Shown here piece by piece: positions 1-64,000 of a stretch of DNA of 64,000 bases; position 1 is the stretch's first letter; every line of letters begins with the position of its first letter. The stretch comes from an uncultured virus (IMG/VR IMGVR_UViG_3300009136_000003) (lineage: Duplodnaviria; Heunggongvirae; Uroviricota; Caudoviricetes; Crassvirales). Position numbers and translations under genes: made by a program. The notes below the pieces were generated by a model. The model made no database searches. It was not told the DNA's origin and saw nothing but the letters and a program-made list of their open reading frames with translations. Location of the stretch: IMG/VR virus record IMGVR_UViG_3300009136_000003; one strand, 5' to 3'.

Positions 1-3000
1 GTTTCTAAGTCTGTTAAAAAAGCAAAAGGTTCTATAAATTTACGACAGTCTTCTAAAGATTTAAAAATAGATATAGAAAAGTATTTTACAAATCCAAAAA
101 CAAGCACGTTTGAAAAGAGAGGTTTTATTGTAAAGGATATTGTAGCAGATATTGCTAAAAACATAGAAAAAAATAAGCAAAAAGAAATTGCAAAACTTTT
201 AGGAGGTGATGTTTCTAAAAATGTAGGAGTAGGTAATACACCTAAAGGAGTTAAAAGCCCCGGTTCACAATCACTTGTTGATTTAATTGCTAAAGTAGCA
301 GCAGAAAAATTAACTAAAGGATTAAATGTAGGAGATGTTTATGCAGTCATAGAAATAAATAGTGAGGTTGAAGTAAAAGAAGATTCTCATCCAAGTTATC
401 CATTTCATATATCTTTAAAAAACGGTAGTAAACCTATATTGCATTTACCAAAAAACAGAGAATCAGGAAGTAAAGTCTTGGTTCAAAAAGGACAAGATGG
501 TAATTACAATCTTGATTATGCAGTTCGTAATGTGTCAGTAGTAGAAGGTCAGTTTAATAATGAAGCTGCATCAACAGCTGTTAAAAAAGGAACTGAAAGA
601 CGAAATGCTAAAAAGAAAAACACACCTCAGTCTCGTAAGCAAATAATAGGAGAGAATGCTGACCTAACGGCACTTAATCTTTCTTATAGCTTAAACTTAG
701 CAAAAGAAATAGAGCGAGTACAAAAACTAAGTTTTAGAGAAAAATTTAATGAAGCGAAGAAAGACAGAGATGTTTTGGAGTACATAAAAATGACCCCACA
801 AGAGGTGAGGTATATGACAGGTTGGGAACGTGGTGTAGATGACAAATGGAGATATGAATTACCTGACGGAAAAGTAACTGTAAGAGAAAAAGGAAAGTTT
901 AAATTATCAGATGTATATGACAGCAAAGGATTATATGACGCATACCCTCAATTAAAAGATATGCCTGTGGATGTTGACATTAGACAACAAGGTGCAGTAA
1001 ATGCTTGGTTTATACCAAGTAGCAAGTCTATAGAGATAAACGCAAAACCTGATTCTAACGTCACTAGCCTTTTAGTTCACGAGATACAACACGCTATTCA
1101 ATTTATTGAAGGGTTTGCTACAGGTGGAAATATGAGGTCTGCATTTGAGGCATACGAAAATACTGTTACCCCTGAAGAGAAAAAAGCAGAGCTAGAATTA
1201 AAGGAAGAGGTTGAAGTATTAAACAATTTAACAACGGTTCTTGAGGTAGGTAGTATTGATTTTGAAGGTATGTCTTTGGACGAGGTATTAAGTTTAGACT
1301 TTATACGAGAAAATTGGGATGCACTAGGACTTGAAAGTAAAGATGATGCCATAGATGTATATGAGTACGTTTATGATAACAATCCTGAAATAATAAGTAA
1401 GTTAAAGACTGATGAATATGGAGATAGTCTTGACTTATCAGGAGCAATGGATGAGGCTTATGAAATAGCAGGGCGTAAAAAAGCCGAGTACTCCGACAAG
1501 TATTCTACGTATGCATTATACCAAAGATTAGCAGGAGAGGTTGAGTCTCGTAATGTTGAGACACGATTTATGATGACAGAAAAGAAAAGAAGAAAAACTC
1601 TTTTGTCAGCAACAGAAGATGTAGCTGCAGAAGACCAAATATTATTATTCCCTGACCAACCTCAGTCTCGTAAGCAGAAAATAGGGAGAACTACAAGACT
1701 AGCTCCTAATGGAAAGCAATCTAACTTAACTGACGTGCAGTATGATGCTGTAAGAACGCCTGCGTTTAAGAAGTGGTTCGGTAATTGGGAGACAGACCCT
1801 GAGAATGCGAGTAAAGTAGTGGACGAGAATGGTGAGCCTAGAGTTGTATGGAGAGGCAGGGACACAAGTAAAGGTGATGTTGGAGATGTAATAGATATTG
1901 GAAAAACCAATGAGGGTGCTTTCTTTGCTGATAATAAAGAGGCTTCCGATTTGTTTATGTCTGAGTTTTTAGGAATTAAAAAAGGTGATTATGAAATAAT
2001 TGAATCGTTTTTAAACATAAGAACCCCGGAAGTATTTGAAGATTTTTGGAATGATTTTATGGGTAATAGAAATTCTAATAAACCTAATTATAAATACGAA
2101 CCAAAAAAAGGTGTTGATGGAGCTATAATAAATGATGACGTTTGGCTACAAGAATCAGAAATAGATTGGAAAGAAGGGCAGTTTGATGAAAATGGTAATC
2201 AATTAGAAGAAGAGGTTATTAAAGAAATCGCTTTAGAAGGCAAGCAATTTATTGTTTTTAAACCTAACCAAATAAAATCAGCCGATGGCAGCAACACTAC
2301 TTTTGACCCAAACAAGCCGTCTATACGTAAGCAACAAGACGACAGCAAAGAGGTTAGTGAAATAGAGGGTGAGATTCAATATTTAGAATCCGAGATTGCA
2401 GACAAGCAAGAGGAAATTGCGGCTGAAAAATCTGATACCAAGGATGACATACAGAAAAAGAAGGATGAGATAGCTAAGGTAAAGAAAAGCAAAAAGTCTC
2501 CTGCCAAAAAAAGAGATTTAATTGAAGATATAAAACAAGAGATTGAAGATATAAAAGAAGACGGACTAGTAAACGTAGAGTATTACATTGAGGAGGTAAA
2601 GGAAGCTAAGAGAGAATTAAAAAAGCAAGAGAAAAAGTTAGCTAAATTAAAAACAAAGCCTGCACCTAAGTCTAAGCCTAAGCCTAAGCCTGCACCTAAG
2701 CCTAAGCCTAAGCCTGCACCTAAGCCTAAAAAATCTAACAATACATATCGTTCATCTTGGTCAGGTAGTTTAGATACATCAATAGAAGTATCTGAAGATT
2801 ATAATCAGATGACCGACCAATATAGAGAGAAAAACAAACAAATAAACCTTGCTAATGGAGAAGATGTAATAACTATAGAAGAGGCTAATAAATTAAAAAT
2901 AGAGCTTCGAGATAATTTAAAGAAAGCAAAATTAAAATTTGAAGAAGCAAAATCTAAGCCTGCACCTAAGCCTGCACCTAAGCCTAAAGCAAAAAAGATT

Positions 3001-6000
3001 TTAGAAGCCATTCCTGAAACAGGTGATGTGACGGCAGAAAACAAGATAACAATTGCAGATAACTTAAGGGCGATAACAAAAGGCGTGAAAACCGCTGTTG
3101 TTTCTTGGATGCGTACAAGTAAGTTCCTAGCACAAGAGATAGGCTCAATGGTTAAGTCCGGTAGGATAACAGTTAAGCAGTCGGCAGCTATACTCAAAAA
3201 GTTTAGTGGTGTCAATATGTTTAACGAGGCTTCTATAGATAGGTTTGTAGATTTTATGGCTCGTGTTATTAATAACGCAGAATATGCAGAGCAGTTATCT
3301 ACCGCAAGAAAAAATATTAAACGAGCTAAGAAAAACATTAGAACTAAGATAGGTAGTGCAGATGCTGTAGCACCTATGCTATCTCAGATTTTTGATGTTA
3401 ACCCATCACTAATACCTGAGTCTGTATGGAAGATTTATACTGACCTAGTTGCTGACTTTGCAGGAAGCGGAGCTGTTATATCCCCTAGTAATGTAGAATC
3501 TGTATCACTAATTGCAGGTGATATTATCGACTCATTAAATGCAGAGTTTTCACAGACTGAAGAGTTAGGAAATAGATACGATGCCTTTGACAAAGTACTA
3601 GACAAGAAGACAGGAGCTGTAGACTACGCTGCTACTATAAAAAAGATGGAGAAGGAAGGTTTGATTACACCGGAGGAACTATCTATAATGTCAAAGTATA
3701 GAACCGATATAGCACCTCCAACTCCTAAGACACCAAAAACAAAGGCTGAGATACAGGCAGAAAAGGATGCTATTATAAAAGACATTAAAGGCTCACCTAC
3801 ATTAAAAATATCTAACATTAATAATAAGTTGGATAGAGCTGTAGCGGATAGGTTTGTTTCTCTGATGGCAACCCCTGAAGTGTTGGAGTCTATGTCATTG
3901 AAAGACTTACAGCAAATTCAAAAGTTAATGGATAACATTAACAATGGATACCTACCTCACCTTGCACAGATACAAGTAGAGAAAATGAGTAGCGTCTTGA
4001 ATTCTAATATATTAACAAGTGCAATACAAGGCAGTAAGCTACTACCTGCGTCTGCTATTTATGGTAGATTAAAAAGTCTAGTAACAAAGAGAGGTGCTAT
4101 TAGTGAGATGATAAGAAGGAATCCTTTGTTTTATATTGACCAAATTTTTGGAGATTTTAAAACTAAAGATATTTTTAACTCTGTATTTAATCAATCAGCT
4201 ATAGCTCAGGAAAGATATCAGGCTGATATTAAAAAGATATTTGGTAGAATTGACAAGGCACAAAACTCTGTAGCTAAAACATACCGTAGAAATCCAAATG
4301 GTTTAGTGAGGTCTAAGTTTAAGCAGATGATTTATTCCATTCAGCTTGAAGCAGAAAGCAACCTTGGTAATCCTGAAGTGAATCAGGCAGGTGCTTATAT
4401 AAAGAAAACTATAGAGGCTATAATGGACGGCAAGACAACATTCACAAAACGTGATGCTGATATGCTTAATGAAATATACAATGAGTTTGAGGTTAATGGT
4501 GAGATAGATATTAATAAGTTGTATGATTCTTTTTCTAAAGTAGAGAAGGCTTCTATAAAAGAAATACAAGACATCAACATTGAGCTTCAAGAGAAGGCAG
4601 TCTTTACAAGTGCAGTTATTCGTGGTGATAGAATGAACCCAAGAAATAATTACACTCACTTAAACGTAATAACAGCAGCCGGTAAAGATAACCTAGCTGC
4701 ACCTTCAGAGGCACAGAAAATATTACAGAGTTTAAGACCTAGCACAAAAGCTAATTCTTTAATTGAAAGAACAGGTAATGTTGCTCCACTAAACTTTGAT
4801 TACTATGCATCTGCATCTAGGGGTGCTAAGGGTGTTCTCTTAGACTTTTATATGACAGAACCTATAAGAACAACTCACAGAACTTTAGACAGGACTAAGG
4901 AGTCTCTTAAAGATGGTTCTAATATGATGCCCGGAAATCAAAGAGAAAAGTTCAACGCTATTAGAGATTCTTTTGATGAGGTAATAGGTAACCTATATGT
5001 AAATGCCTTCACTCAAAACGGATTGGGAGATGCTGCATTAAAGTTTATGAACAGGAATGGATACCGTGCAATACTTGCTAGTAGCACTAGGTGGATAGCC
5101 GAGCTTACATCAAACACAGCGTTTGCTTTAATAACAAACCCAAGGGCGTTTACCATAGGAGCGAAGATAGGCCTTGGTTTCCTAAATAGTGACGCTGCAC
5201 CTAAAGCAATGAAGGTCTTGGGGTCTAAGCAAACCACACGTATATATCCTAGTGATTCTTTATCAGGTAGAATGGTAGACACCAACCTAATGAATCAAGC
5301 TCAGGGTGAAAAGGGAGGTAGAGTTAAGGGTAGATTTAAAAATAAGATGACACAAATTTGGAATCTAACAGGAGCAAAGTATGCAGGTAGTGTAGCTACT
5401 GTGTCTGATGCCTTGATATCTACACCCGATAAGATAGTTATGAGACCAATGTGGTTTGGTAGTTTTAGTGCGGAATTTGAAAAAATAACAGGACAAAAAC
5501 CTGACTTTGATAAGATAGCATCTGAAGACTCAGCATATATGTCAGAGAATGCAGCAGCATTAAAGGATGCCACAACAAAGGCTGATGAGACTTCTGTAAT
5601 GACAGGGTCAACTGCTAATCCTTTTATGGGGATACTCAAAGGACAATCAAAACCTGAAGATGGTTTGATGACCAAAGCATTTAATAACTTCAACACCTTT
5701 ATGACCACGTTCTTAATATACGAATATGTAACTGCTCGTACAGGTATTGTTAATGCAGTAGGTGGAGGTGTCCTAGGAAAGGCTAAGGGAGCACAATTGC
5801 TTGCAGGTTCAGCAACTCGTATGATTACATATACAATGCTAGCGACAGTATTAAGTGAGGCTTTAACAGGACTAGCAGGTGACGAACCTGAAGAGCAAAA
5901 AGCACCCGAAAAACAGCTTGGTCAGGCCATAGCTTCTACAGTTAGTTCTATGATGTTAGGTAGAGACTTTGGTAACGCTACAAAGGCAGTTATAAACTAT

Positions 6001-6699
6001 GGTATCGAAGAATTTAATAAGGAGTTTTTAGATTTTCTAAGAGATGGAGAGTATGACTCTTTTAAGGATGGTATTCAGTATCAGGTAGTTCCTCAAAACA
6101 AAGACGGAAGAGGTAGTGATATAGGTGACTTTATAAAAGCAATGTCAGCAGGTTATAGCCCTTTCATTAAGACTATAGACTTTATGATAGGCAAGGCAAC
6201 TGAAGCTCCTAAAGTAACTGAGGCGGCTAGAAAGAGACAGCAGGATGAGGTTATGATTAGATTACCTTTAGAGGTGTTGGGTAACACAGGTTTAATACCT
6301 CTATATAAGGATGTAAGGAAGATGGTACTTAGAAATCTTTATGGAGAGATGCGTAAGGCTAGTAATGAGTCTGCTAAAAGAAAAGCAAAAGAGTTAGATA
6401 AGTTACAGGGTTACAATAGCAGGAGTGATATGAAAAGGTATGACTACAGATTATGGATGGATACCTTCGGGCCAAACTCAATGGATTGGGATGAGGAGCA
6501 AAGAATAAAAGAGGAGAAGAGAAGATTGAGAGCTGCTAAACAGCGTATCAAAGATGAAGAAAACGGATACACAGGTAGAGGTACTAAGTCCGGATTTGGT
6601 AATAGTGGATTTGGTAATAGCGGATTTGGTAGCGGTGGTTCAAAAAGAAAAACTAAAAAGAAAGGTGGATTTGGTAATAGCGGATTTGGAACGAATTAA
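1..6699 (+). CDS. Giant polyvalent virion/ejection protein, C-terminal part (open from base 1, so 5'-truncated): module A', LPD23-like metallopeptidase cassette, ART-PolyVal-like cassette, coiled coil, PAPK linker, long helical C-terminal region, GFGNS tail
   Basis: Frame +1 is open from base 1 (VSKSVKKAKG...), so the TTG at 439 is not the true start. LPD23-type motifs: TGWERGVDDKWRYE, LYDAYPQL, HEIQHAIQ (1078-1092), YQRLAGEVESRNV. ART-PolyVal-type motifs: RTPAFKKWFGNWE, SKVVDENGEP, FIVFKPNQIKSA. Confidence 0.85.
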   Translation, partial: VSKSVKKAKGSINLRQSSKDLKIDIEKYFTNPKTSTFEKRGFIVKDIVADIAKNIEKNKQKEIAKLLGGDVSKNVGVGNTPKGVKSPGSQSLVDLIAKVAAEKLTKGLNVGDVYAVIEINSEVEVKEDSHPSYPFHISLKNGSKPILHLPKNRESGSKVLVQKGQDGNYNLDYAVRNVSVVEGQFNNEAASTAVKKGTERRNAKKKNTPQSRKQIIGENADLTALNLSYSLNLAKEIERVQKLSFREKFNEAKKDRDVLEYIKMTPQEVRYMTGWERGVDDKWRYELPDGKVTVREKGKFKLSDVYDSKGLYDAYPQLKDMPVDVDIRQQGAVNAWFIPSSKSIEINAKPDSNVTSLLVHEIQHAIQFIEGFATGGNMRSAFEAYENTVTPEEKKAELELKEEVEVLNNLTTVLEVGSIDFEGMSLDEVLSLDFIRENWDALGLESKDDAIDVYEYVYDNNPEIISKLKTDEYGDSLDLSGAMDEAYEIAGRKKAEYSDKYSTYALYQRLAGEVESRNVETRFMMTEKKRRKTLLSATEDVAAEDQILLFPDQPQSRKQKIGRTTRLAPNGKQSNLTDVQYDAVRTPAFKKWFGNWETDPENASKVVDENGEPRVVWRGRDTSKGDVGDVIDIGKTNEGAFFADNKEASDLFMSEFLGIKKGDYEIIESFLNIRTPEVFEDFWNDFMGNRNSNKPNYKYEPKKGVDGAIINDDVWLQESEIDWKEGQFDENGNQLEEEVIKEIALEGKQFIVFKPNQIKSADGSNTTFDPNKPSIRKQQDDSKEVSEIEGEIQYLESEIADKQEEIAAEKSDTKDDIQKKKDEIAKVKKSKKSPAKKRDLIEDIKQEIEDIKEDGLVNVEYYIEEVKEAKRELKKQEKKLAKLKTKPAPKSKPKPKPAPKPKPKPAPKPKKSNNTYRSSWSGSLDTSIEVSEDYNQMTDQYREKNKQINLANGEDVITIEEANKLKIELRDNLKKAKLKFEEAKSKPAPKPAPKPKAKKILEAIPETGDVTAENKITIADNLRAITKGVKTAVVSWMRTSKFLAQEIGSMVKSGRITVKQSAAILKKFSGVNMFNEASIDRFVDFMARVINNAEYAEQLSTARKNIKRAKKNIRTKIGSADAVAPMLSQIFDVNPSLIPESVWKIYTDLVADFAGSGAVISPSNVESVSLIAGDIIDSLNAEFSQTEELGNRYDAFDKVLDKKTGAVDYAATIKKMEKEGLITPEELSIMSKYRTDIAPPTPKTPKTKAEIQAEKDAIIKDIKGSPTLKISNINNKLDRAVADRFVSLMATPEVLESMSLKDLQQIQKLMDNINNGYLPHLAQIQVEKMSSVLNSNILTSAIQGSKLLPASAIYGRLKSLVTKRGAISEMIRRNPLFYIDQIFGDFKTKDIFNSVFNQSAIAQERYQADIKKIFGRIDKAQNSVAKTYRRNPNGLVRSKFKQMIYSIQLEAESNLGNPEVNQAGAYIKKTIEAIMDGKTTFTKRDADMLNEIYNEFEVNGEIDINKLYDSFSKVEKASIKEIQDINIELQEKAVFTSAVIRGDRMNPRNNYTHLNVITAAGKDNLAAPSEAQKILQSLRPSTKANSLIERTGNVAPLNFDYYASASRGAKGVLLDFYMTEPIRTTHRTLDRTKESLKDGSNMMPGNQREKFNAIRDSFDEVIGNLYVNAFTQNGLGDAALKFMNRNGYRAILASSTRWIAELTSNTAFALITNPRAFTIGAKIGLGFLNSDAAPKAMKVLGSKQTTRIYPSDSLSGRMVDTNLMNQAQGEKGGRVKGRFKNKMTQIWNLTGAKYAGSVATVSDALISTPDKIVMRPMWFGSFSAEFEKITGQKPDFDKIASEDSAYMSENAAALKDATTKADETSVMTGSTANPFMGILKGQSKPEDGLMTKAFNNFNTFMTTFLIYEYVTARTGIVNAVGGGVLGKAKGAQLLAGSATRMITYTMLATVLSEALTGLAGDEPEEQKAPEKQLGQAIASTVSSMMLGRDFGNATKAVINYGIEEFNKEFLDFLRDGEYDSFKDGIQYQVVPQNKDGRGSDIGDFIKAMSAGYSPFIKTIDFMIGKATEAPKVTEAARKRQQDEVMIRLPLEVLGNTGLIPLYKDVRKMVLRNLYGEMRKASNESAKRKAKELDKLQGYNSRSDMKRYDYRLWMDTFGPNSMDWDEEQRIKEEKRRLRAAKQRIKDEENGYTGRGTKSGFGNSGFGNSGFGSGGSKRKTKKKGGFGNSGFGTN
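625..641 (+). repeat. Cassette-boundary motif CCTCAGTCTCGTAAGCA (PQSRKQ), copy 1
   Basis: Exact 17-mer also at 1660, 62781 and 63231, always in the giant protein's reading frame. Confidence 0.95.
1659..2429 (+). repeat. 771-bp direct repeat of 63230-64000 (offset 61571 bp)
   Basis: Sequences match by eye, and the ORF track gives identical antisense ORFs at 1662..1910 and 63233..63481. The upstream flanks are unrelated. Confidence 0.95.
1660..1676 (+). repeat. Cassette-boundary motif (PQSRKQ), copy 2
   Basis: Exact 17-mer; identity with the window's 3' end starts here. Confidence 0.95.
2656..2730 (+). repeat. Coding tandem repeat AAGCCT/AAGCCTGCACCT giving a KPAPKPKP linker (second patch about 2956-2988)
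   Basis: Visible 6- and 12-bp units. Confidence 0.9.
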
Positions 6700-13798: not shown

Positions 13799-14533
13799 TT
13801 AAAGAAACTCATCATAATAAAAGGTTTCTATATCTAACTCAGCATCTGTGCTATAGAATTTATTGTAAACCTCTATAGCCTTCTCAACTTTAAATTCACC
13901 ACCCTTTACAAACTCTTCTGTTGGTCTGTATATACCCATCATACCATTGGTCTTGTCGATAACAACAAATATTAACGGCTTGCCAAAAAGTTTTTGGTAG
14001 ATGTAGCATTGGCTATCGTAGTTGTACTTACGAGCTGACCACTTAAAGTCTTCAATCTTTGATGTGGTCTTGATATCAATCACCATATCGGGGTGAACAA
14101 TATCTGCCTTACCTTTCCACATAACGCCTTTAATCTCAGCGATTGCAGGCACTTCATAGTTGTTATTAGGGTTTCTGATTAGGTCGTACATATCTAAGTT
14201 GCCCATTAGAACAGTAACAAGCTTTCTTAGTTCCTCGCCCTCCTTGTCTAGCAAAGCGAAAAGCACATCATTCTCTACACAGTATTCTTTGTATACTTTA
14301 GTGTTCCTTGATGATGAGTCTACGAACCTTACATTCTCAGCCTTCGATGGCTCAAGTATTAACTGATGAAAATACCTACCCTTAGCAAAATTTGCATTGT
14401 CGGGTAGGCTTATTCCATATTGCTTAGGATTAGTTAGTAACGTTCCTATATCTGAGTTAGACATATACTGCTTACCAAAGTCTCCGTAATAATCCTTATC
14501 GTCTCTTAGTCTTTCTATAGTTTCAGCGTGCAT
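13799..14533 (-). CDS. RecE/Exo VIII-like PD-(D/E)XK exonuclease (DUF3799 type)
   Basis: MSNSDI, GRYFH, WKGKAD, IDIKTT, YNYDSQCYIY. Confidence 0.8.
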   Translation of the reverse strand: MHAETIERLRDDKDYYGDFGKQYMSNSDIGTLLTNPKQYGISLPDNANFAKGRYFHQLILEPSKAENVRFVDSSSRNTKVYKEYCVENDVLFALLDKEGEELRKLVTVLMGNLDMYDLIRNPNNNYEVPAIAEIKGVMWKGKADIVHPDMVIDIKTTSKIEDFKWSARKYNYDSQCYIYQKLFGKPLIFVVIDKTNGMMGIYRPTEEFVKGGEFKVEKAIEVYNKFYSTDAELDIETFYYDEFL

Positions 14534-14538
14534 ATCTA

Positions 14539-15204
14539 TTAGGAATTAAGGATGTTAGATAGTTCTGTCTTTACAGGTGCAGATAGTACGTACTTACGCC
14601 CTACCATTGCTGTTAGCTTCTCGTTGCCTAGAGACTTGTTCTCTTTCACATACGCCATAACATTTTTCCAATTGTCATCACCCTTTTTTAAATTTAGCTT
14701 TGGTGCTTTCTTGTTCTGAACGCTTGTAGCCTTTGCTTTCTCCTGTGCCTCTACTACGTTGTTGTTATTTGATTCAGGCATATCCTCACCTGCGTATATA
14801 TAAATACCCATACCAAACATAGCTAGGTTCTTTACTAGGCATCTCATCATTGTCTTGTTTACGTCAAACATAGTCGCCCCTGCAACCTGCTTCTCTCCGT
14901 ACCTTGTGGTGAAGCTATAAGCCTCTTTCTTCATAGACTTGTTTGCACCGTCCATAACAGGAAGCCACATTGATAACGTCTCACCGTCTATAGTTACTGA
15001 CGAGTGACACATAAAGCCAAGTGCCTCATCGTACTCCGTCTCACCCATTTTGTAGGTGGCATCAGGACAAACCTTTTTTACTTCGCTCCAAGCCCACGCC
15101 CAAGATAGGTACGTGAGATTGTTTTTCTTTTCTGCTTTCGCATTTACATTAATCGCTGACAATTTTTCAAAGGTAGTCAGTTCCTTTTCTTTTGCTTTTG
15201 ACAT
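14539..15204 (-). CDS. Sak/Rad52-like single-strand annealing protein (DUF1071 type)
   Basis: EKKNNLTYLSWAWAW, MWLPVMD, RCLVKNLAMFGMGIYIYAGED. Confidence 0.85.
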   Translation of the reverse strand: MSKAKEKELTTFEKLSAINVNAKAEKKNNLTYLSWAWAWSEVKKVCPDATYKMGETEYDEALGFMCHSSVTIDGETLSMWLPVMDGANKSMKKEAYSFTTRYGEKQVAGATMFDVNKTMMRCLVKNLAMFGMGIYIYAGEDMPESNNNNVVEAQEKAKATSVQNKKAPKLNLKKGDDNWKNVMAYVKENKSLGNEKLTAMVGRKYVLSAPVKTELSNILNS

Positions 15205-17518: not shown

Positions 17519-17614
17519 TTTACGGTGATTTTCGGTAATTTACGGTGATTTTCGGTAATTTACGGTAGTAAGTTAACTGCACTTAACTTCACTTAACTGC
17601 ACTTAACTTCACTT
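17519..17614. repeat. Two adjacent 10-bp-period tandem arrays: TTT(A/T)CGGT(G/A)A x5 and TTAACT(G/T)CAC x4
   Basis: Read directly; intergenic. Confidence 0.9.
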
Positions 17615-22684: not shown

Positions 22685-23136
22685 ATCGATATTACTACAG
22701 CTACAGGGTATAATTTATATTGTTTCAGCATCCTAGTGCTTAATGGTTTTATCAGTATCCCAATTGAATTCCTTTGAAACTATCCGTTTGCAAGGGTAAA
22801 ATTATTCTTATATTTCACGTAATATCTTTTTTTCGATAGAATCATTAAAGTAACACTTCAAGTAGTGCGAGCATACTCTCTGTAAGTCAGTTACTTATAA
22901 ATCAAAAATCTCAGAATGTCAATGAACTTTAGCTCTCGCACCCTGTAAAGATAGTGTTTTTAATGTGATTTCTTCGTCTATTTATAATAAAATATTAATA
23001 TATCTTTTTATGGGCTGTATTCCCTAGGGATTGTTTAGGGTATCAATCTATAGGGCTGAGGTGATGCAAAGCCTCTTTGCTGTTAATAGTCTTTAATTCA
23101 CTACTTGCTGTGCAATGTGAGTGCTTACCTGTACAA

Positions 23137-23939: not shown

Positions 23940-25538
23940 ATGAATGAAATAGGATACTCTCCGAAAAATTTACATTTCGGAAATGAAGGCAGGAATAAAC
24001 TTATAAACGGCATTGAGGCAATGTCAAACGCAGTAAAGTCCACGTTAGGCCCTTCCGGGCAGACGGTTCTTATTGAGTCGCCAAGCCACACACACGGAAT
24101 AACTGTAACCAAGGATGGTGTTACTGTGGCAAAGTCGGTTGACCTGCTAGACCCTGTTGAGAACCTTGCGGTAAGGATGATGAAGGAGGCTGCTGACAGG
24201 ACTGCTACCTCAGCGGGTGATGGCACAACCACGGCTATAGTACTAACAGAGCAGTTGGTATTGGAGGGGGAGAGGCTTATCAGACATAAGGCCAACAAGA
24301 CTGAGGTGCTAAGAGAACTTGTTCAGAATACTAAAGATATTGTGTCACAACTAGAGAAGATGTCAAGGGCTGTTACAAAAGGGAGGCTACGTGACGTGGC
24401 AACTATTTCATCAAACAACGACACACACATTGGTGGGATAATCTCAAAGGTGTATAAGGGCGTTGGCAAGAATGGCATCGTGACTGTTGACCGTTCCCAA
24501 ACATCTGACACACACTTTGAGACCACTAATGGATTAAAGATTGAGAGAGGGTTCTCGTCAAACATATTCATAACAGACCAAAAAAAGGATGAATGTATAT
24601 TCGATGACGTTTATATACTTGTGTCGGACGCAGAGATAAGTAACATACTTCAAATTGAGAACGTATTAAAACCAATTCTAACAGACAACAAGAAGCTGCT
24701 TATTATTGCACCGTGCTCGACAAATGTTGTCAACACGTTGGCAGCCAATAAGATGAAGAGAGACATAAAGATTTGTACGATACCACCACCTAACTTTGGG
24801 TACAAGCAGCACGAGCTGATGCAGGACATTGCAATCTCTGTTGGTGCTACATACTACTCTGAGAAGACCGGTGATGACCTCAGCCTTATTGAGTTTAGTG
24901 ACCTAGGTTTTGCGGCCAAGGTTGTGGTTGACAGTACATCTACTATTATTGTAAAGGAGTCTATGGAAATATCTGAGGAGGTATCCGATAGGGTTGCACA
25001 ACTTCGTGAGCAGCATACTAATACAGACAGGAAGAGTGATAAGGAGTTTATTCTTTCAAGGATTGCTTCGCTTACAGGTGGTGTTGGAACAATATTCGTT
25101 GGGGGAAAGACTGACCTAGAGCACAAGGAGTTATACGACAGGGTCGATGATGCCGTGTGTGCAGTTCGTTCCGCTCTTGAGGAGGGTATACTACCCGGAG
25201 GTGGAGTGGCACTATATTACTTATCTAGGCAGTATGACCTGCCTGAAGCAAGTATAGCACAAAAAATGTTAAAAGCTGCACTCAAGTCTCCATTAATGCA
25301 GATATACGAGAACGCAGGTGTTGAGATAAACAAGGAAATATTAGAAGACCTAGACTTCTGTGAGCAAAACTACGGAATGAATGTCAAGACAGGTGAGTGG
25401 GGGGATATGTATAAGATGGGGGTCATTGACCCGCTGAAGGTAACCAAGTCAGCACTACAGAACGCTGTCTCTGTTGCGGTCAGTATACTGTCAACCAACG
25501 CTATTATAACACAGGCACGAACTTATGAGACAAACTAA
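23940..25538 (+). CDS. groEL: Phage chaperonin GroEL (Cpn60)
   Basis: TLGPSG, VTKDGVTVAK, AGDGTTTA, DRVDDA, EEGILPGGG, GVIDPLKV; no GGM tail. Confidence 0.95.
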   Translation: MNEIGYSPKNLHFGNEGRNKLINGIEAMSNAVKSTLGPSGQTVLIESPSHTHGITVTKDGVTVAKSVDLLDPVENLAVRMMKEAADRTATSAGDGTTTAIVLTEQLVLEGERLIRHKANKTEVLRELVQNTKDIVSQLEKMSRAVTKGRLRDVATISSNNDTHIGGIISKVYKGVGKNGIVTVDRSQTSDTHFETTNGLKIERGFSSNIFITDQKKDECIFDDVYILVSDAEISNILQIENVLKPILTDNKKLLIIAPCSTNVVNTLAANKMKRDIKICTIPPPNFGYKQHELMQDIAISVGATYYSEKTGDDLSLIEFSDLGFAAKVVVDSTSTIIVKESMEISEEVSDRVAQLREQHTNTDRKSDKEFILSRIASLTGGVGTIFVGGKTDLEHKELYDRVDDAVCAVRSALEEGILPGGGVALYYLSRQYDLPEASIAQKMLKAALKSPLMQIYENAGVEINKEILEDLDFCEQNYGMNVKTGEWGDMYKMGVIDPLKVTKSALQNAVSVAVSILSTNAIITQARTYETN

Positions 25539-27404: not shown

Positions 27405-27701
27405 ATGTCAGATAAAACAGGAAAGCAAAAAGCAGCAGATGTAAAGGCAGCTAAGGCAGCTAAGGCAGCTAAGGCAGCTAAGGCAGCTAAGGAGACTAAG
27501 GCGGCTAGGGCTTTAAAATTAAAGAAGCAAGTTGCTGACCTTTCTACTTTTAAAAAGACAGACAGTCAAAAATGGACTTCAAAAAATGCAAGGCAGAGAA
27601 GACAAGATGTAAGCGGCACAGGAATAGTAGGCTTAAGAGCTCTTGGTCAGACAACAAAAGTAAAAAGAAGTCGAACTTATAAACCTAAAAAAACAAAGTA
27701 A
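27405..27701 (+). CDS. Basic Lys/Ala-rich protein with a (KAA)5 repeat
   Basis: 9-bp unit AAGGCAGCT x5 at 27444-27488; ATG at 27405. Confidence 0.75.
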   Translation: MSDKTGKQKAADVKAAKAAKAAKAAKAAKETKAARALKLKKQVADLSTFKKTDSQKWTSKNARQRRQDVSGTGIVGLRALGQTTKVKRSRTYKPKKTK

Positions 27702-31022: not shown

Positions 31023-33083
31023 ATGGCAATTAGGTATCTAGACAACATTAACTTAGAGGAGAATCAGTTACTGAACGCCTCTTTGCAACAAGTCAATTCA
31101 GACCCCACGGGATTTGAGGGACAAATTATTTACAACACAACAAGTAATGTGTTCAAGTACTACAATGGTACTGCTTGGATTTCATTAGACGGAACAGGTG
31201 ACATTACAGGTGTAACAGCAGGTGCAGGTTTAACAGGGGGTGGAACATCAGGTACTGTTGTTTTAGATGTAGGTTCAGGGACAGGTATAACCGTAAACGC
31301 AAATTCGGTTGCTGTTGATTCAACGGTAGTAAGAACAACAGGCACACAGACTATTGGAGGTGCAAAAACCTTCACCACGATTCCTGTAGTAGGAACGGCT
31401 ACTATATCAGACGATTCAACTAAGGCGGCATCTACTGCTTGGGTTAAAGACCAAGGTTATGTAGACGATTCAGGAGTAACAAGCATTACACTTGCAGCAG
31501 ATTCAGGTTCAGGAAGTGCAATTACAGGCGTAGGAACACAGACATTTACAGGTGCAGGCCTTATGTCAACCGCAGTAACAGGTACTACGGTAACTATTAG
31601 CACTACAGCAACAAGTAACCTAGGTACGGTAACAGGTGTAGGAGCAGGTGATACAACTTTCATTGATGGTACTAGTACAGGAGGAACAACACCTTCTATT
31701 TCAATGGCATTAAGTGCAACAGGAACACCAAGTTCATCTACTTACTTAAGGGGTGATAACTCTTGGGCAACAGTTCCGGGTGGATACACATCTTGGACAG
31801 CTCGTGCTGATGGAGGCCCTGACAATACTATCATAGATGCCGATATTGTTGATATCGCAGGTGGAACAGGACTTAGTAGTTTAATAGCTACGGTTGGTAC
31901 TATATCTACTGTGACAATGAAATTAAACGACACGGCAGTAACAGCAGCTAGTTATACTCTAGCTAATATTACTGTTGATGCACAAGGTAGAATTACCGCA
32001 GCATCTAATGGAGCACCGGGTTCTAGTACCTTTATGCTTAGTTGGAGAATAACAGGTGACACAGGAACAACAACTTCTGTATTTCAAAATGATTTAGTAG
32101 ACATTCAAGGAGGCACAGGTATCGCTACAAGTGCAAGTGGACTTACTGTAGACGTAGAGCTTGACCTTGATGATTTACCACCTGCAACAACTTTTAACGG
32201 TGCTACCGAGTATCTCGCAATGGTAACCGCAGGGAATACATCAAGTAAAATTTTTGGAAACGATATTAGTGTAACGCAGCTTGGAGAACCAACGGCTAAC
32301 TTTGATATTGACACACATAAAGTAATAAACGTTGTTGACCCAACAAATGACCAAGACGCAGCTACTAAGAAGTATGTAGATGACAATATAGTTGGTGGAT
32401 TAATATATCAAGGTGGATATAACGCAGCAACTAACACACCTAACTTAGATAGTAACCCAAGTCCAAATAACATTAAGCAGGGTTGGACATATACAGTAAC
32501 TCAAGATGGTCTGTTCTTTACGGAACAAGTAAGAATAGGTGATGTAATTATTGCAGAGGTAGACACACCAACAGCTTTAGCTGATTGGACAACTGTTCAG
32601 AATAACATTGACATTGCAACAACTAGTGTTGCGGGTATTGCTTCTTTCCCTACAGCAGGCGGAACAAGTATAACTGCAGCAGGTGCTGTATCACTAGCAA
32701 ACGTAGGAACAGCAGGAAGTGTTGGTTCAGCTAGTCAGTCTTTAAGTATCACAACAGATGCTAAGGGTAGGGTAACATCAAGAAGTGCTCAAAACATTCA
32801 AATTGCATCAACACAGATTACAAACTTCTGTACTGCGGTTGAGACTTGTATTGGTGATGCAACCGAGTATAGTACAACTATTGGAAACGGTACTTTGTTA
32901 TCTCATACTGTAACTCATAATTTAGATACAAAGCTAGTAATCGTTCAGCTTTTTGATTCAAGCACATTTGATACTGTTCAGGCTACTGTAGTAAGAACGT
33001 CTGATGATGTTGTGACTATATCAACATCTTCAGCTATTGCAACAGGAGATGTGACGGTATTGATTAAAGCAATAAAAGCCTAA
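31023..33083 (+). CDS. Tail/head fibre-like protein
   Basis: Gly/Thr-rich repeats, DAATKKYVD, ITVDAQGRIT, C-terminal VTHNL module. Confidence 0.75.
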   Translation: MAIRYLDNINLEENQLLNASLQQVNSDPTGFEGQIIYNTTSNVFKYYNGTAWISLDGTGDITGVTAGAGLTGGGTSGTVVLDVGSGTGITVNANSVAVDSTVVRTTGTQTIGGAKTFTTIPVVGTATISDDSTKAASTAWVKDQGYVDDSGVTSITLAADSGSGSAITGVGTQTFTGAGLMSTAVTGTTVTISTTATSNLGTVTGVGAGDTTFIDGTSTGGTTPSISMALSATGTPSSSTYLRGDNSWATVPGGYTSWTARADGGPDNTIIDADIVDIAGGTGLSSLIATVGTISTVTMKLNDTAVTAASYTLANITVDAQGRITAASNGAPGSSTFMLSWRITGDTGTTTSVFQNDLVDIQGGTGIATSASGLTVDVELDLDDLPPATTFNGATEYLAMVTAGNTSSKIFGNDISVTQLGEPTANFDIDTHKVINVVDPTNDQDAATKKYVDDNIVGGLIYQGGYNAATNTPNLDSNPSPNNIKQGWTYTVTQDGLFFTEQVRIGDVIIAEVDTPTALADWTTVQNNIDIATTSVAGIASFPTAGGTSITAAGAVSLANVGTAGSVGSASQSLSITTDAKGRVTSRSAQNIQIASTQITNFCTAVETCIGDATEYSTTIGNGTLLSHTVTHNLDTKLVIVQLFDSSTFDTVQATVVRTSDDVVTISTSSAIATGDVTVLIKAIKA

Positions 33084-58265: not shown

Positions 58266-61200
58266 ATGGCAATACAAGAAATATATTACACCACTCCAAA
58301 CGGAATGAAGATGAGTCAGACCGAGGCATTAGAACGCTACGGTAGTGAACAGTTTGATGCATTGGTTAACGAAGGTCAGTTAGTAGAATTTATTCAAGAA
58401 GAAGACCCTGAATTAAACCAAGGAGATAGTTTCTACGAATCACCCAATGGAAATGTTTATACCGAAGGTGATTTAGCAAATCGATATGGTCTTGAAGCAT
58501 TTAACAAATTAATAGACGAAGGTCATTTAAAAAAAAAAGATTCTCCTCAAGAAGTATCAAGCTTTGGGGGTGGAGATTTAGAGCCAACAGAGACTTTACC
58601 ATATCAAGATTTACCTGAACCTACTGAACAAGATTTTTTTGAGGGTGGATTTGGGGATGCACTAAGAGGATTTGATGCTATAGTACCTCTAGGTATTGGA
58701 GACTTTATAGATGATATGACTCGTGCTGTTGCAGGTGGTATAAACCAAGGTATTGCAGGAGAGAACGCATCAGACCTTTTGTTCGCAGGGTCAATGGCTA
58801 CGGATGAGGATATCGCTAGCTATATTGAAGCCAATCAAAACGCTCAAAAGTATGGGTCTTCTCAGGAAATGCAGGAGTACCAAAAAACCTACGAAGAATA
58901 TGGAGGTGTTTTAGGTGTTGTTATGGGTCTTGCTAAATCAGGATTAACAATACTACCCGAAATAATGTTAAGCTCATTTGCTGCTATGGCAGCCAACTCA
59001 GATGCTTTGGCTGCGGGAGGAACAATTGTTGGAGGTAGTGCAACAGCAGGTGCTTTAACAGCAGGTGCAGGAGCATCCGTTGTTGTTCCTGTAGTTGGAA
59101 CAGTAGTAGGAGCAGCAGCCGGAGCTATTACAGGAGCAGCAGCATCGTTACCTTATGCATTTGCTGCGGCTAGTACGGCATTAGAAATGGGTGCTACTTT
59201 CTCTGAACTACTTCAAGGAGAAATTGATGGAGAATTAACTCCTGAAAAAATTAAGGCAGCCTTAAGCAACGAAAAAACTTACACAAGCATTAGAAACAAA
59301 GCAGTTGCAAGGGGTATTACTATAGGTGCTCTTGATATGCTTTCAGGTAAAGTAGGTGGTAGAATTGCATCTTCTGTATTAAAAAAAGGTGCGAGAGCTA
59401 CAGGCATATCGTCAAGGGCTACAAAAATAAAGGCAGTAGCTGCGGCAAGTGCTGTAGAAGGAGTAGGTGGTTCAATAGGTGAGACTGCAGGTATTGCGGC
59501 AACTAATATAATTGGTGATACTAAAGGTCAGGATTTTGACATCTCTGAGATTATACTTGAAGGTATAGCTGAAATACCCGGTGGTGTAAAGGATATGGTT
59601 TCTGCTAGGTTTAGTAAACCTAAATATAAAGTAAACGGAGAAAGAGTTGATGCGGCTACCATAGACAGTATGATAGAAACAATGACTCTAGAGCAGCTTA
59701 CCGAAAGTAGGATACAAATAGACAACGATTACGAGGGGAGAGATGCTGCATTGCAAGATAGAAAAGTAACACTATCTATAGAAAATCAGGTAAGAAAAGT
59801 AATACCCAATATTACTCCTGAAGCTGTTACTGAGATAGTTACGTTACAGAAAGAACTACAATCACTTGAAGGAAACAAAACCGAAGTAGGTAAAAAAAGA
59901 GCGTCAGAAATTAGAGGTTCAATTAATGAAATTATGACCAATGAAACTGCAGAAGCAGGTGTCGTTGAGGTAACAGATGAAGCGGTTGTTGCTAGAATAA
60001 AAGAGATTAAAGGTGACGACTCTGCTTACACTCAAGAAGAGTTTGACAATATTAAAAAAATATTAGAGGCTGAAAATGAAGCTCAATTAGTAGAGGCACA
60101 AGAGGAACAGGTAATAACAAGTACTGAAGAGTTTAGAGGACTTGAACAGTCAGAACAAATAGATTACCTAGAGAAGGCAACTAAAGAATTAGCAGCAGAG
60201 GCTGAAGCAGGTGGTAAAGTAGATTTTGAAATAACAGAATCACAAGCCTTGACAAGAGCAAATCAATTATTCCAAGATAATAAAAATGAAATAGGTAGAC
60301 AAGAAAGGTTAGACAGTAGAGCGGAGAAAGAGAAAAAACAATTTGGAGAACAACACGCTGATGAGAAACTACCTTACGAAAAAGGTGCTGATGGAAAAGG
60401 AAGAGCTAAACTATACGACATTACAAAACCTAATGAGAAAGGAGTTGTTACTGCCGAGTATGTAAATCCCGAAACAGGAGTTGTAGACGTTATAATTAGC
60501 GGACAAAATGATGATAATTTTGTAGGGTATGTTAGGGTTTATGAAAACGGTAAGCCAACAAATATGTTTACTGCTAAGATGGAGTCAACAGGAGACGCTT
60601 TCAAAGATATGATTACCGATGCTGAGGCTAAACTTCCTGACAACGCAGAGGTTGTTGAAACAACATCGATATCTATAGACGGATTAAAGTCATCTAGTAA
60701 ATCAAAGCGAACAGAAAAAGTAGACGCTGATGGAAATGTTGTAACAAGACCAACGCCATATAGTGCCGCTACAAAAGAGTCTGTAGCAAGTGCCAAAGGA
60801 ACTGACACAAATCCTTTTGAAAACTTTAAAACTACTGATAAAGCTGCAGCAGAAGCAGAGGTCGCTAAGATTGAAGCTGCATATCCGGGGATAACTGCAA
60901 CAATAAATAAACGAAAAGGGCCTCCTGCTCCTCCACCTAGACCGGGGACAAAAGACAAAGCTTCTGCTAAAGCAAAGCCTGAATATACAGTTTCTGTAAA
61001 CCTTCCTGTTTTAGTGTCACCTAAATCAAACAACAAAACAAAAGTAGAAACAGATGCCGTTAAAAATTCACGTAAGCAACAATCTAAAGTTGAGCAGCAG
61101 GTAGACAACGCTAGAAAGGCTTTGAAAACTATTGACAATGAGATTAAAGTGGTGTATCATACTGACGATGCGTCTTACCGAGATGCTACAAACGAACAGT

Positions 61201-64000
61201 CAAGGGAGCAGTCTACTAATGGGGAGTATAATCCTACGACTAAAACCATACACATAAACGGAACGAAGGCTAATAACAAAACAGTAGCACACGAGGTGTT
61301 CCACGCATTGCTGTTGAGGACAGGGATAACTAACGAGCAGGCTAAGGCTATTACGGATAAAATGCTAAAAGCGGTGAAGAAGACTGCATCGCCTGAGTTG
61401 ATTGAAAAATTAGAAAAGTTCTCTAGCAATTATAAATCCTCACTACAGAGCGAGGAGAGTATAGCGGAGTTGTTTGGGTTACTAGCATCAGAGTATCCGA
61501 ACCTAGACGCACCTACTCAGAGTATAGTAAAGAGATGGCTTGATAAGATAGCTAAGATACTAAGGCTTAAGCCATTTACTGACGCTGAGGTTATTGACTT
61601 ACTAAATGCGGTGTCTGCAAAGGTTGAGGCAGGACAAGAGATTACAGAGCAGGATGTTGCTATACTAGATGGTAGTGTTAGTGGTGTTATAAATACAAAA
61701 GCGAGAAAGCAAGCCTCTGTATTAACAAGTTTTACTTTGAAAAGGTTTCCTACAAATACAAATATAAAGTTATCGGAGGATACTCCTTTAAGTGATTTCA
61801 ATGAAAAAAAATCCAACCTACTTGAATCGGATAGAATGACAGGAGCTTTTATAGCTGATGCTAATAATAATCCTGTGTTTAAATTCTTTGGTGGAATATA
61901 CTTCCCACAGATAACAGGTAAGTGGTGGGCATCTAGAACTATTTCTAAGGCGAATGGGGTAGCCAAGAATATGAACGCTAATAGAGACAAGGATGGTTAT
62001 ATTTATGCAACACCAATCATAATGAAGCCGAACTCTCATATGAGTAATCAAGATATGTTTGAGACTGTGTGGGAGTTTATGAAGTTTGATTTAAGGTCAA
62101 AGTCTAGTAAGGTAACTAAGAAGTTATTTCACGAATACTTAACCAAAGCTCTTACATTAAAATCAGTAAACTTATCTGAATCGGACTTAAATATAAAAAA
62201 GTCTGACAACATAGAAGTAATGATTAGTAAGCTAAACGATGTTTTACTAGGCAAAGAAATAGATAATCTTAATTATGATTCTACTAAACCTGAATCAATA
62301 GATAACGCTAAAACAATAATTAAAGAATCAAACCTTTCGTTTGAAAAAAGGAAGGCAATTATAAAAGGTATTTTAGGAGACCCTAAGATAACCGAAGACA
62401 GAAAGTTTCCAACGGCAGGTTCTATATCAGAAGTGGCATCTAAGTTTGAGGAAGAAAAAACTAAGCAGGCAACTAAACTTTGGGATGTAGTAATGCTGAT
62501 GAGAACAAAAGGAACTTTGTCTACAAAGGTTACTCCAAAGTCAGATGAATTTTACCATAAGTCATATCCTGCAGAGATATTTTCAGACCAAGAGATAGAG
62601 GTTTTCTTTTTAGATGGAGCTTATAATATAGACACAACATATCCTGTACTTACTCAGTCATCAGGAAAAGTTTTCTCGTGGAAGGAGTATTCTGAAAAAC
62701 ATCCATCAGCGGCAATGGCATTAAGTCAGTATGGTAGGACTGCTAAGTTATCACAAGCTAGTGGTGATATAGTAGCAAGCCCTCAGTCTCGTAAGCAGAA
62801 GCCTAACTACAAAATAGCAAAAATTAATACACCCAACACAACTATAAATGTTGTTGAAGGAGCAGGAACTGATAGTTTTGAGATAGCAACTAAAGATTAT
62901 AAAGCCACCGAAGGAGTAGAAGGCTCTACAATAATTGGTTTTGTTAAAAATAAAGATTTTCCGGGAGAAAAAAAGAAAGAAACAAGGGGAGAGATTTTTA
63001 TTCTTCAAGTAGGTGATAAAGGAAAAGGAACAGGTACTTCTTTAATGTTAGATGCATTAAGATTAATGAAAGAAAATGGAACAAAAACTGTTAAGTTTAC
63101 AGTTCCAAGTAAAGAAGGAAAACCATTTAATGAATCTTTAGTTCGTAAGGGATATATAAATTTACTTAAAGTAAGCGATAGAACCGGTACTTCTGAATAT
63201 GAAATAACAGATAAGGTTTTAGAAGACGCACCTCAGTCTCGTAAGCAGAAAATAGGGAGAACTACAAGACTAGCTCCTAATGGAAAGCAATCTAACTTAA
63301 CTGACGTGCAGTATGATGCTGTAAGAACGCCTGCGTTTAAGAAGTGGTTCGGTAATTGGGAGACAGACCCTGAGAATGCGAGTAAAGTAGTGGACGAGAA
63401 TGGTGAGCCTAGAGTTGTATGGAGAGGCAGGGACACAAGTAAAGGTGATGTTGGAGATGTAATAGATATTGGAAAAACCAATGAGGGTGCTTTCTTTGCT
63501 GATAATAAAGAGGCTTCCGATTTGTTTATGTCTGAGTTTTTAGGAATTAAAAAAGGTGATTATGAAATAATTGAATCGTTTTTAAACATAAGAACCCCGG
63601 AAGTATTTGAAGATTTTTGGAATGATTTTATGGGTAATAGAAATTCTAATAAACCTAATTATAAATACGAACCAAAAAAAGGTGTTGATGGAGCTATAAT
63701 AAATGATGACGTTTGGCTACAAGAATCAGAAATAGATTGGAAAGAAGGGCAGTTTGATGAAAATGGTAATCAATTAGAAGAAGAGGTTATTAAAGAAATC
63801 GCTTTAGAAGGCAAGCAATTTATTGTTTTTAAACCTAACCAAATAAAATCAGCCGATGGCAGCAACACTACTTTTGACCCAAACAAGCCGTCTATACGTA
63901 AGCAACAAGACGACAGCAAAGAGGTTAGTGAAATAGAGGGTGAGATTCAATATTTAGAATCCGAGATTGCAGACAAGCAAGAGGAAATTGCGGCTGAAAA
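58266..64000 (+). CDS. Giant polyvalent virion protein, N-terminal part (runs off the window): N-terminal repeats, Ala/Gly-rich hydrophobic region, zincin metallopeptidase, module A, GNAT cassette, ART-PolyVal-like cassette
   Basis: ATG at 58266 (MAIQEIYY). Absent from the ORF track, consistent with no stop before 64000. HEVFH at 61290-61304 plus EESIAE; GNAT motif DKGKGTGTSLMLDAL; same frame as the PQSRKQ motifs. Joined through the repeat it would be about 3334 aa. Confidence 0.88.
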   Translation, partial: MAIQEIYYTTPNGMKMSQTEALERYGSEQFDALVNEGQLVEFIQEEDPELNQGDSFYESPNGNVYTEGDLANRYGLEAFNKLIDEGHLKKKDSPQEVSSFGGGDLEPTETLPYQDLPEPTEQDFFEGGFGDALRGFDAIVPLGIGDFIDDMTRAVAGGINQGIAGENASDLLFAGSMATDEDIASYIEANQNAQKYGSSQEMQEYQKTYEEYGGVLGVVMGLAKSGLTILPEIMLSSFAAMAANSDALAAGGTIVGGSATAGALTAGAGASVVVPVVGTVVGAAAGAITGAAASLPYAFAAASTALEMGATFSELLQGEIDGELTPEKIKAALSNEKTYTSIRNKAVARGITIGALDMLSGKVGGRIASSVLKKGARATGISSRATKIKAVAAASAVEGVGGSIGETAGIAATNIIGDTKGQDFDISEIILEGIAEIPGGVKDMVSARFSKPKYKVNGERVDAATIDSMIETMTLEQLTESRIQIDNDYEGRDAALQDRKVTLSIENQVRKVIPNITPEAVTEIVTLQKELQSLEGNKTEVGKKRASEIRGSINEIMTNETAEAGVVEVTDEAVVARIKEIKGDDSAYTQEEFDNIKKILEAENEAQLVEAQEEQVITSTEEFRGLEQSEQIDYLEKATKELAAEAEAGGKVDFEITESQALTRANQLFQDNKNEIGRQERLDSRAEKEKKQFGEQHADEKLPYEKGADGKGRAKLYDITKPNEKGVVTAEYVNPETGVVDVIISGQNDDNFVGYVRVYENGKPTNMFTAKMESTGDAFKDMITDAEAKLPDNAEVVETTSISIDGLKSSSKSKRTEKVDADGNVVTRPTPYSAATKESVASAKGTDTNPFENFKTTDKAAAEAEVAKIEAAYPGITATINKRKGPPAPPPRPGTKDKASAKAKPEYTVSVNLPVLVSPKSNNKTKVETDAVKNSRKQQSKVEQQVDNARKALKTIDNEIKVVYHTDDASYRDATNEQSREQSTNGEYNPTTKTIHINGTKANNKTVAHEVFHALLLRTGITNEQAKAITDKMLKAVKKTASPELIEKLEKFSSNYKSSLQSEESIAELFGLLASEYPNLDAPTQSIVKRWLDKIAKILRLKPFTDAEVIDLLNAVSAKVEAGQEITEQDVAILDGSVSGVINTKARKQASVLTSFTLKRFPTNTNIKLSEDTPLSDFNEKKSNLLESDRMTGAFIADANNNPVFKFFGGIYFPQITGKWWASRTISKANGVAKNMNANRDKDGYIYATPIIMKPNSHMSNQDMFETVWEFMKFDLRSKSSKVTKKLFHEYLTKALTLKSVNLSESDLNIKKSDNIEVMISKLNDVLLGKEIDNLNYDSTKPESIDNAKTIIKESNLSFEKRKAIIKGILGDPKITEDRKFPTAGSISEVASKFEEEKTKQATKLWDVVMLMRTKGTLSTKVTPKSDEFYHKSYPAEIFSDQEIEVFFLDGAYNIDTTYPVLTQSSGKVFSWKEYSEKHPSAAMALSQYGRTAKLSQASGDIVASPQSRKQKPNYKIAKINTPNTTINVVEGAGTDSFEIATKDYKATEGVEGSTIIGFVKNKDFPGEKKKETRGEIFILQVGDKGKGTGTSLMLDALRLMKENGTKTVKFTVPSKEGKPFNESLVRKGYINLLKVSDRTGTSEYEITDKVLEDAPQSRKQKIGRTTRLAPNGKQSNLTDVQYDAVRTPAFKKWFGNWETDPENASKVVDENGEPRVVWRGRDTSKGDVGDVIDIGKTNEGAFFADNKEASDLFMSEFLGIKKGDYEIIESFLNIRTPEVFEDFWNDFMGNRNSNKPNYKYEPKKGVDGAIINDDVWLQESEIDWKEGQFDENGNQLEEEVIKEIALEGKQFIVFKPNQIKSADGSNTTFDPNKPSIRKQQDDSKEVSEIEGEIQYLESEIADKQEEIAAE
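62781..62797 (+). repeat. Cassette-boundary motif (PQSRKQ), copy 3
   Basis: Exact 17-mer. Confidence 0.95.
63230..64000 (+). repeat. Direct repeat of 1659-2429, starting at PQSRKQ copy 4 (63231-63247)
   Basis: Identical to the end of the window. Confidence 0.95.

Follow-up and report, generated by a model that had tools for sequence, protein, structure and literature searches.

Two haplotypes of a giant polyvalent virion gene converge at an in-frame junction repeat in an Elemovirus-like phage

The stretch of phage DNA analyzed here, 64,000 nucleotides in all and referred to below as the window, runs around the circle from one haplotype of a giant virion gene (A'-LPD23-ART, at the 5' end) into a second haplotype of the same gene (A-GNAT-ART, at the 3' end). 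End-to-end comparison of the window shows that 63230-64000 is 100% identical to 1659-2429, over 771 nt and at an offset of 61571; the identical stretch reaches the window edge, making 771 nt a lower bound on its length. The last mismatch between the two ends lies at 1658, so that identity starts 1 nt ahead of a 17-mer junction repeat, while positions 1-1600 match the other end at only 22-38% identity per 100-nt bin, as random sequence would. An earlier note on this DNA had reported both the identity with unlike upstream sequence and the convergence at the motif, and our comparison bears out both. The note had also argued that a simple circular overlap would match from base 1; as 1-1658 does not match the 3' end, this explanation is ruled out. 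Its module labels hold as well (LPD23 and ART by Pfam, GNAT via homologues, A and A' as homologues of each other), with the refinement that two slots rather than one distinguish the haplotypes, slot 1 (A versus A') and the position occupied by GNAT or LPD23.

The relationship between A and A' decides between the readings that remain. The two are distant homologues (HHalign probability 92.5%, E 5e-7, 26% identity), and in related loci every match to their family immediately follows the zincin, with a single module in each gene. Furthermore, a relative that is 97.6% identical to the window over 6 kb (L071) carries a single array, in which one different module replaces the whole of the window's array and the gene is otherwise colinear. 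The window ends therefore represent two haplotypes that are distinct at two slots, and among the options raised in the earlier note two coexisting cassette haplotypes are the best supported, a conclusion further strengthened by junctions from independent runs. A true internal duplication, which the note had named as one finding that would overturn its reading, is disfavored by the single A/A' module per gene and the single array of L071, as is a long form accompanied by a deletion form, since neither haplotype is a deletion of the other. The 771-nt stretch is where the contig overlaps itself around the circle, beyond the point of convergence of the two haplotypes.

The window is a near-complete genome, ~61.6 kb, of an Elemovirus-like podovirus whose hosts probably belong to the Flavobacteriia. 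By Pfam and PHROGs matches, one strand encodes terminase, portal, virion proteins and crAss muzzle, and the other encodes helicase, Sak and exonuclease VIII; runs in which the stretch occurs come, where labelled, from marine, seawater or brine metagenomes. The giant gene lies downstream of the terminase, portal, virion structural and muzzle genes on the same strand, with an opposite-strand metallophosphoesterase as its own downstream neighbor. Its product is predicted to be a polyvalent virion cargo protein of ~3,500 aa, reading in order as a constant N-terminus, a zincin, a variable array and a constant C-terminus (Table 1). The array, set between the fixed zincin and the fixed C-terminal region, consists of in-frame enzyme cassettes that each end in R-x-Q. 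The left edge of the variable region (~61642-61658) falls at the end of the zincin and is not a copy of the 17-mer.

Table 1. Features of the giant gene and of the candidate recombination genes, in window coordinates.
Feature	Position	Strand	Basis or remark
C-terminal 214 aa of slot-1 module A', haplotype 1	1..642	+	88.8% aa identity to the slot-1 module after the zincin in L066
Junction repeat copy PQSRKQ	625..641	+	exact 17-mer
LPD23 cassette, 345 aa, HExxH motif	643..1677	+	Pfam
Junction repeat copy PQSRKQ, LPD23-ART junction	1660..1676	+	recovered in independent run
ART-PolyVal cassette common to both haplotypes	1678..2334	+	Pfam
Charged helical insert	2335..2950	+	relatives' alignment
Constant C-terminal region	2950..6699	+	phrog_32588 E 7e-70; 97% nt to L071
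Exonuclease VIII (RecE-like), likely Sak partner	13799..14533	-	DUF3799; phrog_412 E 3e-28
Sak (Rad52-like) single-strand annealing protein, candidate recombinase	14539..15204	-	Pfam SSAP_Sak E 1.5e-43; phrog_659
Giant polyvalent virion gene, 5' part, haplotype 2	58266..64000	+	1911 aa, open at window end
Constant N-terminal region, ending in fixed RKQ (61071-61079)	58266..61079	+	phrog_32588 E 1e-38
Zincin-like metallopeptidase (MPTase), fixed array anchor	61080..61670	+	HEVFH ~61290-61304 and downstream EE
Fixed RKQ after zincin, AGA codon, not a DNA-repeat copy	61704..61712	+	
Slot-1 module A, 362 aa	61713..62798	+	confident model; function predicted weakly from fold
Junction repeat copy PQSRKQ	62781..62797	+	exact 17-mer
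GNAT-family acetyltransferase cassette, 150 aa	62799..63248	+	homologue support
771-nt stretch identical to 1659-2429	63230..64000	+	sequence identity
Junction repeat copy PQSRKQ, haplotype convergence point	63231..63247	+	exact 17-mer
ART-PolyVal cassette, second copy, ending PSIRKQ	63249..63905	+	identical to 1678-2334

Elsewhere in the window, an ~18-nt quasi-palindromic repeat, AGTGTC-N6-GACAC, occurs at 9545, 17498, 19107, 20375, 20841 and 21927, and also near 23132 and 45820; the copies are mostly intergenic and in the early region, and represent a possible operator or promoter. The phage encodes a GroEL-type chaperonin and a GroES-like protein (23940-25538 and 37611-38174). Probable fiber genes carry diverged tandem or shared repeats (36190-37011, 31196-31368 and 33315-33487), and short tandem repeats are found at 17519-17568 (period 10 nt) and 27435-27511 (period 9 nt).

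The domain content places the giant gene product in a known class, the phage-type polyvalent proteins, given its phage virion-gene setting, a zincin hub with HExxH and a downstream Glu, and at least two biochemically diverse effector domains (ART-PolyVal and LPD23, with GNAT via homologues). Both LPD23 (E 3e-9) and ART-PolyVal (E 2e-13) score above their Pfam cut-offs, and homologues of the LPD23 cassette at 73-78% aa identity are present in three relatives (L019, L035 and L075). The window GNAT cassette itself has no direct Pfam match; 16 of its 28 short homologues match GNAT-clan models at E<=0.01, nine of them above the Acetyltransf_1 cut-off. The ESM Atlas provides a GNAT lead only (27-42% of cluster members), and the predicted model of the cassette is poor (pLDDT 37.8). 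Residues H71, E72, H75, E125, E126 and E130 of the zincin are invariant across 17 aligned sequences, and its Pfam matches are weak ones to peptidases; we regard it as a candidate processing enzyme of the giant protein. Module A gives a confident model (pLDDT 85) and matches an Elemovirus structural protein in BFVD (E 4e-12); its sequence matches to solved structures did not go below E 0.065, and Foldseek gave none in the PDB at E<=0.001. In a wide fold search its best 12 rows were all EVE/YTH/PUA-type domains (best Z 6.6, rmsd 3.6, 134 aligned residues), names that we take to denote one fold grouping. This resemblance of the predicted model is a weak lead toward modified-base binding.

The signal at the cassette junctions appears to be both a DNA repeat and a peptide. 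The 17-mer CCTCAGTCTCGTAAGCA is present in four exact copies (Table 1), all on the + strand, in frame and reading PQSRKQ, where shuffled sequences give a chance expectation of 0.10 matches even allowing 3 mismatches; exact identity between the window's copies extends over 17-20 nt only. Among relatives, the 15-mer is exact in 23/30 PQSRKQ copies, where codon use predicts 0.3%, in a silent-site test from which one exact copy per locus had been removed, that is, restricted to copies not used in finding the locus. The codons of internal RKQ are CGT-AAG in 62/64 (ascertained copies included), whereas the two RKQ sites flanking the zincin use AGA in 23/26. At the protein level the signal reaches further: in 69 non-redundant distant loci (from 80 viral loci found through the zincin protein alone), R[KQFEM]Q, a pattern chosen after inspection of the data, directly follows the zincin in 37, against a background of 0.03, and 32 are without it. 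Codons at these R-x-Q sites vary, and in-gene repeats of 16-27 nt are found at such sites in some lineages only. The DNA repeat is therefore homogenized in this clade, and R-x-Q appears to be an older, family-wide peptide signal with varied codons. RKQ occurs elsewhere in the window's proteins just once in 12,449 aa (30 ORFs), which lends no support to a general prohead-protease site.

Comparison with relatives shows that the motif is where cassettes are exchanged, gained and lost, among members of one phage species as well as across distant phages. An exact-motif scan yielded 69 metagenome and 11 viral loci, of which 40 and 4, respectively, carry the motif in a long frame; the remaining 29/69 and 7/11 matches, all within short frames, were excluded as unrelated or due to chance. 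Once 11 overlapping loci had been removed, modules were delimited at RKQ in 38 loci and clustered, and among 33 loci more than 20 module orders were found. Other cassettes in these arrays include further ARTs and GNATs, a methyltransferase, DUF7178 and near-empty units of 6-18 aa. The window GNAT cassette recurs at 96.7-98.7% nt identity in four other loci whose backbones are divergent (43-45%, 20% or undetectable similarity to the window in their C-terminal regions), so cassettes cross between distant phages. With a further nine near-duplicate or uninformative loci left out, the ends of blocks at or above 90% identity fall within -40 to +25 nt of the RKQ end in 72/85 cases on the left and 57/67 on the right (129/152 in total), in windows covering 9.6% of the region; the count comes from 31 genes in pairs that are not independent, one of them being the window's own pair. 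Right-hand breakpoints cluster at -1 to +7.

Individual loci add detail to this picture. In L019 the GNAT has an ART-type tail and switches to it 15 nt ahead of the end of the motif; among ART cassettes, the points of recombination lie 102-161 nt into a common leader. The order A-GNAT-ART is found in L057, with 9 nt missing at the junction and a different ART. A 76%-identical GNAT elsewhere in a relative (P0001) has no RKQ, so that some domains also move without the motif. The first ~110 aa of the charged insert (2335-2670) are found upstream of the zincin in L056 (7437-7779, 95% nt) and L078 (1073-1396, 85%), and the arrays of L103 and L130 include a module of 20-aa tandem repeats (VTDLGxLxSI) that is leucine-rich-repeat-like by eye. 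An LPD23 search of viral contigs returned 80 distant loci at 28-41% identity, and the viral contigs searched held no relative of the GNAT cassette. Among 114 candidate stretches in prokaryote genomes there was no zincin relative, and neither prophage nor host was found.

Contigs from four runs of four studies were compared with 59500-64000, and the statements here concern the rows listed, 58 pieces and 22 loose ends lying outside them. One run (X1) yields a contig 100% identical over 63231-64000, on which a branch, a loose end of at least 255 nt, precedes 63230; its 30 listed letters are those of window 1629-1658, and the LPD23-ART junction therefore exists in an independent sample. Of the two junctions that the earlier note had singled out for checking, this one was thus recovered; the exact GNAT-ART junction is not bridged among the rows listed from the four runs, where poor GNAT cover in X1 and X6 was not counted as absence. 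In X1, module A also branches to the start of LPD23 (12 letters visible), and an A-ART deletion junction appears only on a 43-nt contig reaching 10 letters past the motif, below the 31-letter bar. In X15 a different slot-1 module leads to LPD23 (29/30 letters equal 642-671), LPD23 is joined directly to the C-terminal region with no ART, and GNAT sits in another backbone, while in X6 a 9-aa microcassette links A to ART. Contigs with such junctions include ones of 6.8-20 kb, and the six joints listed in the runs are all skips, none with a change of strand. Outside the array, X15 has 393 extra letters at 61052-61068 and X1 has 390 other letters in place of 60291-61036, which together indicate a second variable site upstream of the zincin.

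The two haplotypes and the exchange at the motif are probably explained by a putative processing site that has turned into a place of crossover by short homology, at which the phage's own Sak and exonuclease VIII would act. In this model, R-x-Q would be the older protein-level signal, most likely a polyprotein cut site that releases separate effectors, with the zincin of the giant protein itself as the probable cutting enzyme. As all cassettes end in R-x-Q codons, crossovers there would preserve both frame and signal, and repeated exchange could have homogenized the junction codons into a DNA repeat of 17-27 nt. During co-infection, Sak and exonuclease VIII would carry out homology-directed recombination, a new combination requiring two crossovers, of which one falls at the repeat and the other in the long backbone that the phages share, and selection by host defenses would maintain several combinations per population. 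Exchange directed by homology rather than at a fixed site is suggested by the variable switch points (-15 nt in L019, 102-161 nt in the ART leaders) together with the lack of a recombinase match: integrase and recombinase models matched none of the 31 ORFs of at least 180 aa, nor did 28 queries against PHROGs return one. Several observations count against this explanation. The 17-20 exact nt shared by the window's copies fall below the minimal pairing segment of 23-27 bp given for Red-beta in PMC3945230, and PMC8093625 puts efficient pairing at 40-50 bp. Neither the change at the left edge of slot 1 nor the displaced GNAT of P0001 involves the repeat, the peptide is missing after the zincin in 32/69 distant loci, and the array is invariant in the eight cultured Elemovirus records.

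A bolder proposal is that a family of aquatic Bacteroidota phages shares a cassette pool in which a core, CGT(A/C)AGCAG, is actively targeted while R-x-Q serves as the cleavage site of the zincin. We consider this unlikely; if true, it would amount to in-gene, integron-like shuffling of injected anti-host enzymes. Improbable, too, is a dedicated site-specific or hotspot system acting at the same core through a host-supplied or unrecognized phage recombinase, in effect an in-gene integron. In the loci found through the protein, CGT is used at 52/123 internal R-x-Q sites, compared with 8.2% of other Arg codons and 5/56 fixed sites, and this holds across lineages with different peptides; such a system would also fit the pile-up of right-hand breakpoints, an exact homology that is short for annealing, and the recurrence of near-empty cassettes. 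However, AGA is equally used at 52/123 of these internal sites, the window holds no inverted copy on its other strand, the 31 ORFs searched gave no recombinase match and the switch points range from -15 in L019 to +102 to +161 in the ART leaders, while the common CGT is explicable by descent through exchanged cassettes.

It is quite improbable, in our view, that the motif acts purely at the peptide level, as a linker or cleavage site, with rare illegitimate crossovers arising anywhere, those at domain ends surviving and the repeat a passive by-product. R-x-Q is indeed family-wide with varied codons, the majority of distant genes are without a long in-gene repeat there, and selection for intact domains would also gather breakpoints at boundaries. 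Yet silent-site identity (23/30 versus 0.3%) and the presence of several junction combinations within single samples point instead to frequent exchange via the repeat in this clade. Very improbable is an assembly artefact, in which short-k joins at the ~20-nt repeat made the GNAT-ART junction and perhaps some relatives' orders: the smallest k of common assemblers is 21, some 21 nt may be common to such junctions, the contig itself joins two haplotypes and GNAT-ART is the junction left unbridged in the rows listed, but LPD23-ART and other junctions recur in independent assemblies on contigs of kilobase length, the same orders appear in separate records (L008/L011/L047, L025/L046 and L071/L073), and at most one junction would be affected, not the system.

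The closest cultured relatives are Flavobacterium phages of the genus Elemovirus, whose 68 records are the only cultured matches to the zincin (40-41% identical). Their orthologue, of ~3,700 aa and annotated in the records as 'structural protein' (vB_FspP_elemoA-F; QLF85284.1), shares with the window gene its position, layout, zincin and a slot-1 homologue, as well as SRFQ, TRQQ and SVRMQ at boundaries that match the window's R-x-Q. In contrast, it has no PQSRKQ DNA repeat and its array region is invariant across the eight cultured records; in elemoD it is the N-terminal region that has been replaced, not the array. That replacement (L088 compared with L092) spans ~690 aa at 15-26% identity, the remainder being 98.7% identical. 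The gene of L092 also carries a 31-nt, 97% identical in-frame repeat (DAVQKQ, at gene positions 3252-3282 and 3648-3678) around a segment of ~130 aa upstream of the zincin, possibly another cassette junction.

The array resembles several recombining systems without coinciding with any of them. In integrons and shufflons, exchangeable cassettes stand in an ordered array with short repeats at their borders, and the window shares this organization; it differs in that its repeats are direct only, its cassettes are domains of one reading frame and no integrase or invertase was matched. The phage ORFs covered (31, and 28 PHROGs queries) include no tyrosine recombinase of the IntI type, although a host enzyme is possible, and none of the 25 inverted repeats listed in the window has both arms at a junction. 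All four repeat copies (4/4) lie on the + strand, and the six listed joints keep their strand, which is unlike a shufflon. In polymorphic toxins (Rhs, CdiA, MafB), the exchange of effector domains takes place at a conserved motif, itself a processing mark, and one C-terminal toxin is swapped with its cognate immunity gene from orphan cassettes. The likeness lies in exchange at a conserved motif of processing type, processing being presumed for the window gene. Here, however, several internal domains vary in number and order, cassettes are donated by other phage genomes, the C-terminal ~1250 aa do not vary and the four repeat copies in the window all lie inside the gene, so there are no orphan cassettes of the kind known from toxins. 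Mosaicism through Rad52-like recombinases, as treated in PMC3945230, is similar in that phage annealing proteins recombine short, diverged homologies, and different in that the window has a dedicated in-frame repeat at domain ends, slightly under the Red-beta minimum.

The polyvalent proteins of Iyer et al. 2017 (PMC5512222) are the nearest counterpart, being very large and multidomain, with a zincin MPTase, ART, GNAT, LPD23 and variable domain content, and for the phage type autoprocessing by the MPTase has been proposed (section 8); a preprint on phi24B proposes that such a protein is an ejection protein (10.64898/2026.04.10.717836). In the consulted text of PMC5512222 no junction peptide or DNA repeat is named ('linker' 0, 'shuffl' 0), and cassette recombination is mentioned for polymorphic toxins. 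Its one suggestion of cassette recombination there concerns separate small ORFs near a Verrucomicrobium locus, whereas the window's cassettes stand in tandem and in frame inside one gene and vary within a population. A sequence search gave no look-alike window, and literature searches, mostly judged from listings, turned up no account of such a junction. Domain gain, reordering and cut sites of polyvalent proteins are proposed in PMC5512222 in general terms, and this locus gives exact coordinates for the putative cut sites, as a defined peptide, and for the exchange, as a defined DNA repeat. To these it adds coexisting combinations in natural samples, a codon-level test and a cultured relative on marine Flavobacterium. 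Single-consensus viral genomes hide combinatorial effector variation of this kind, and a terminal repeat that does not start at base 1 can flag such a locus.
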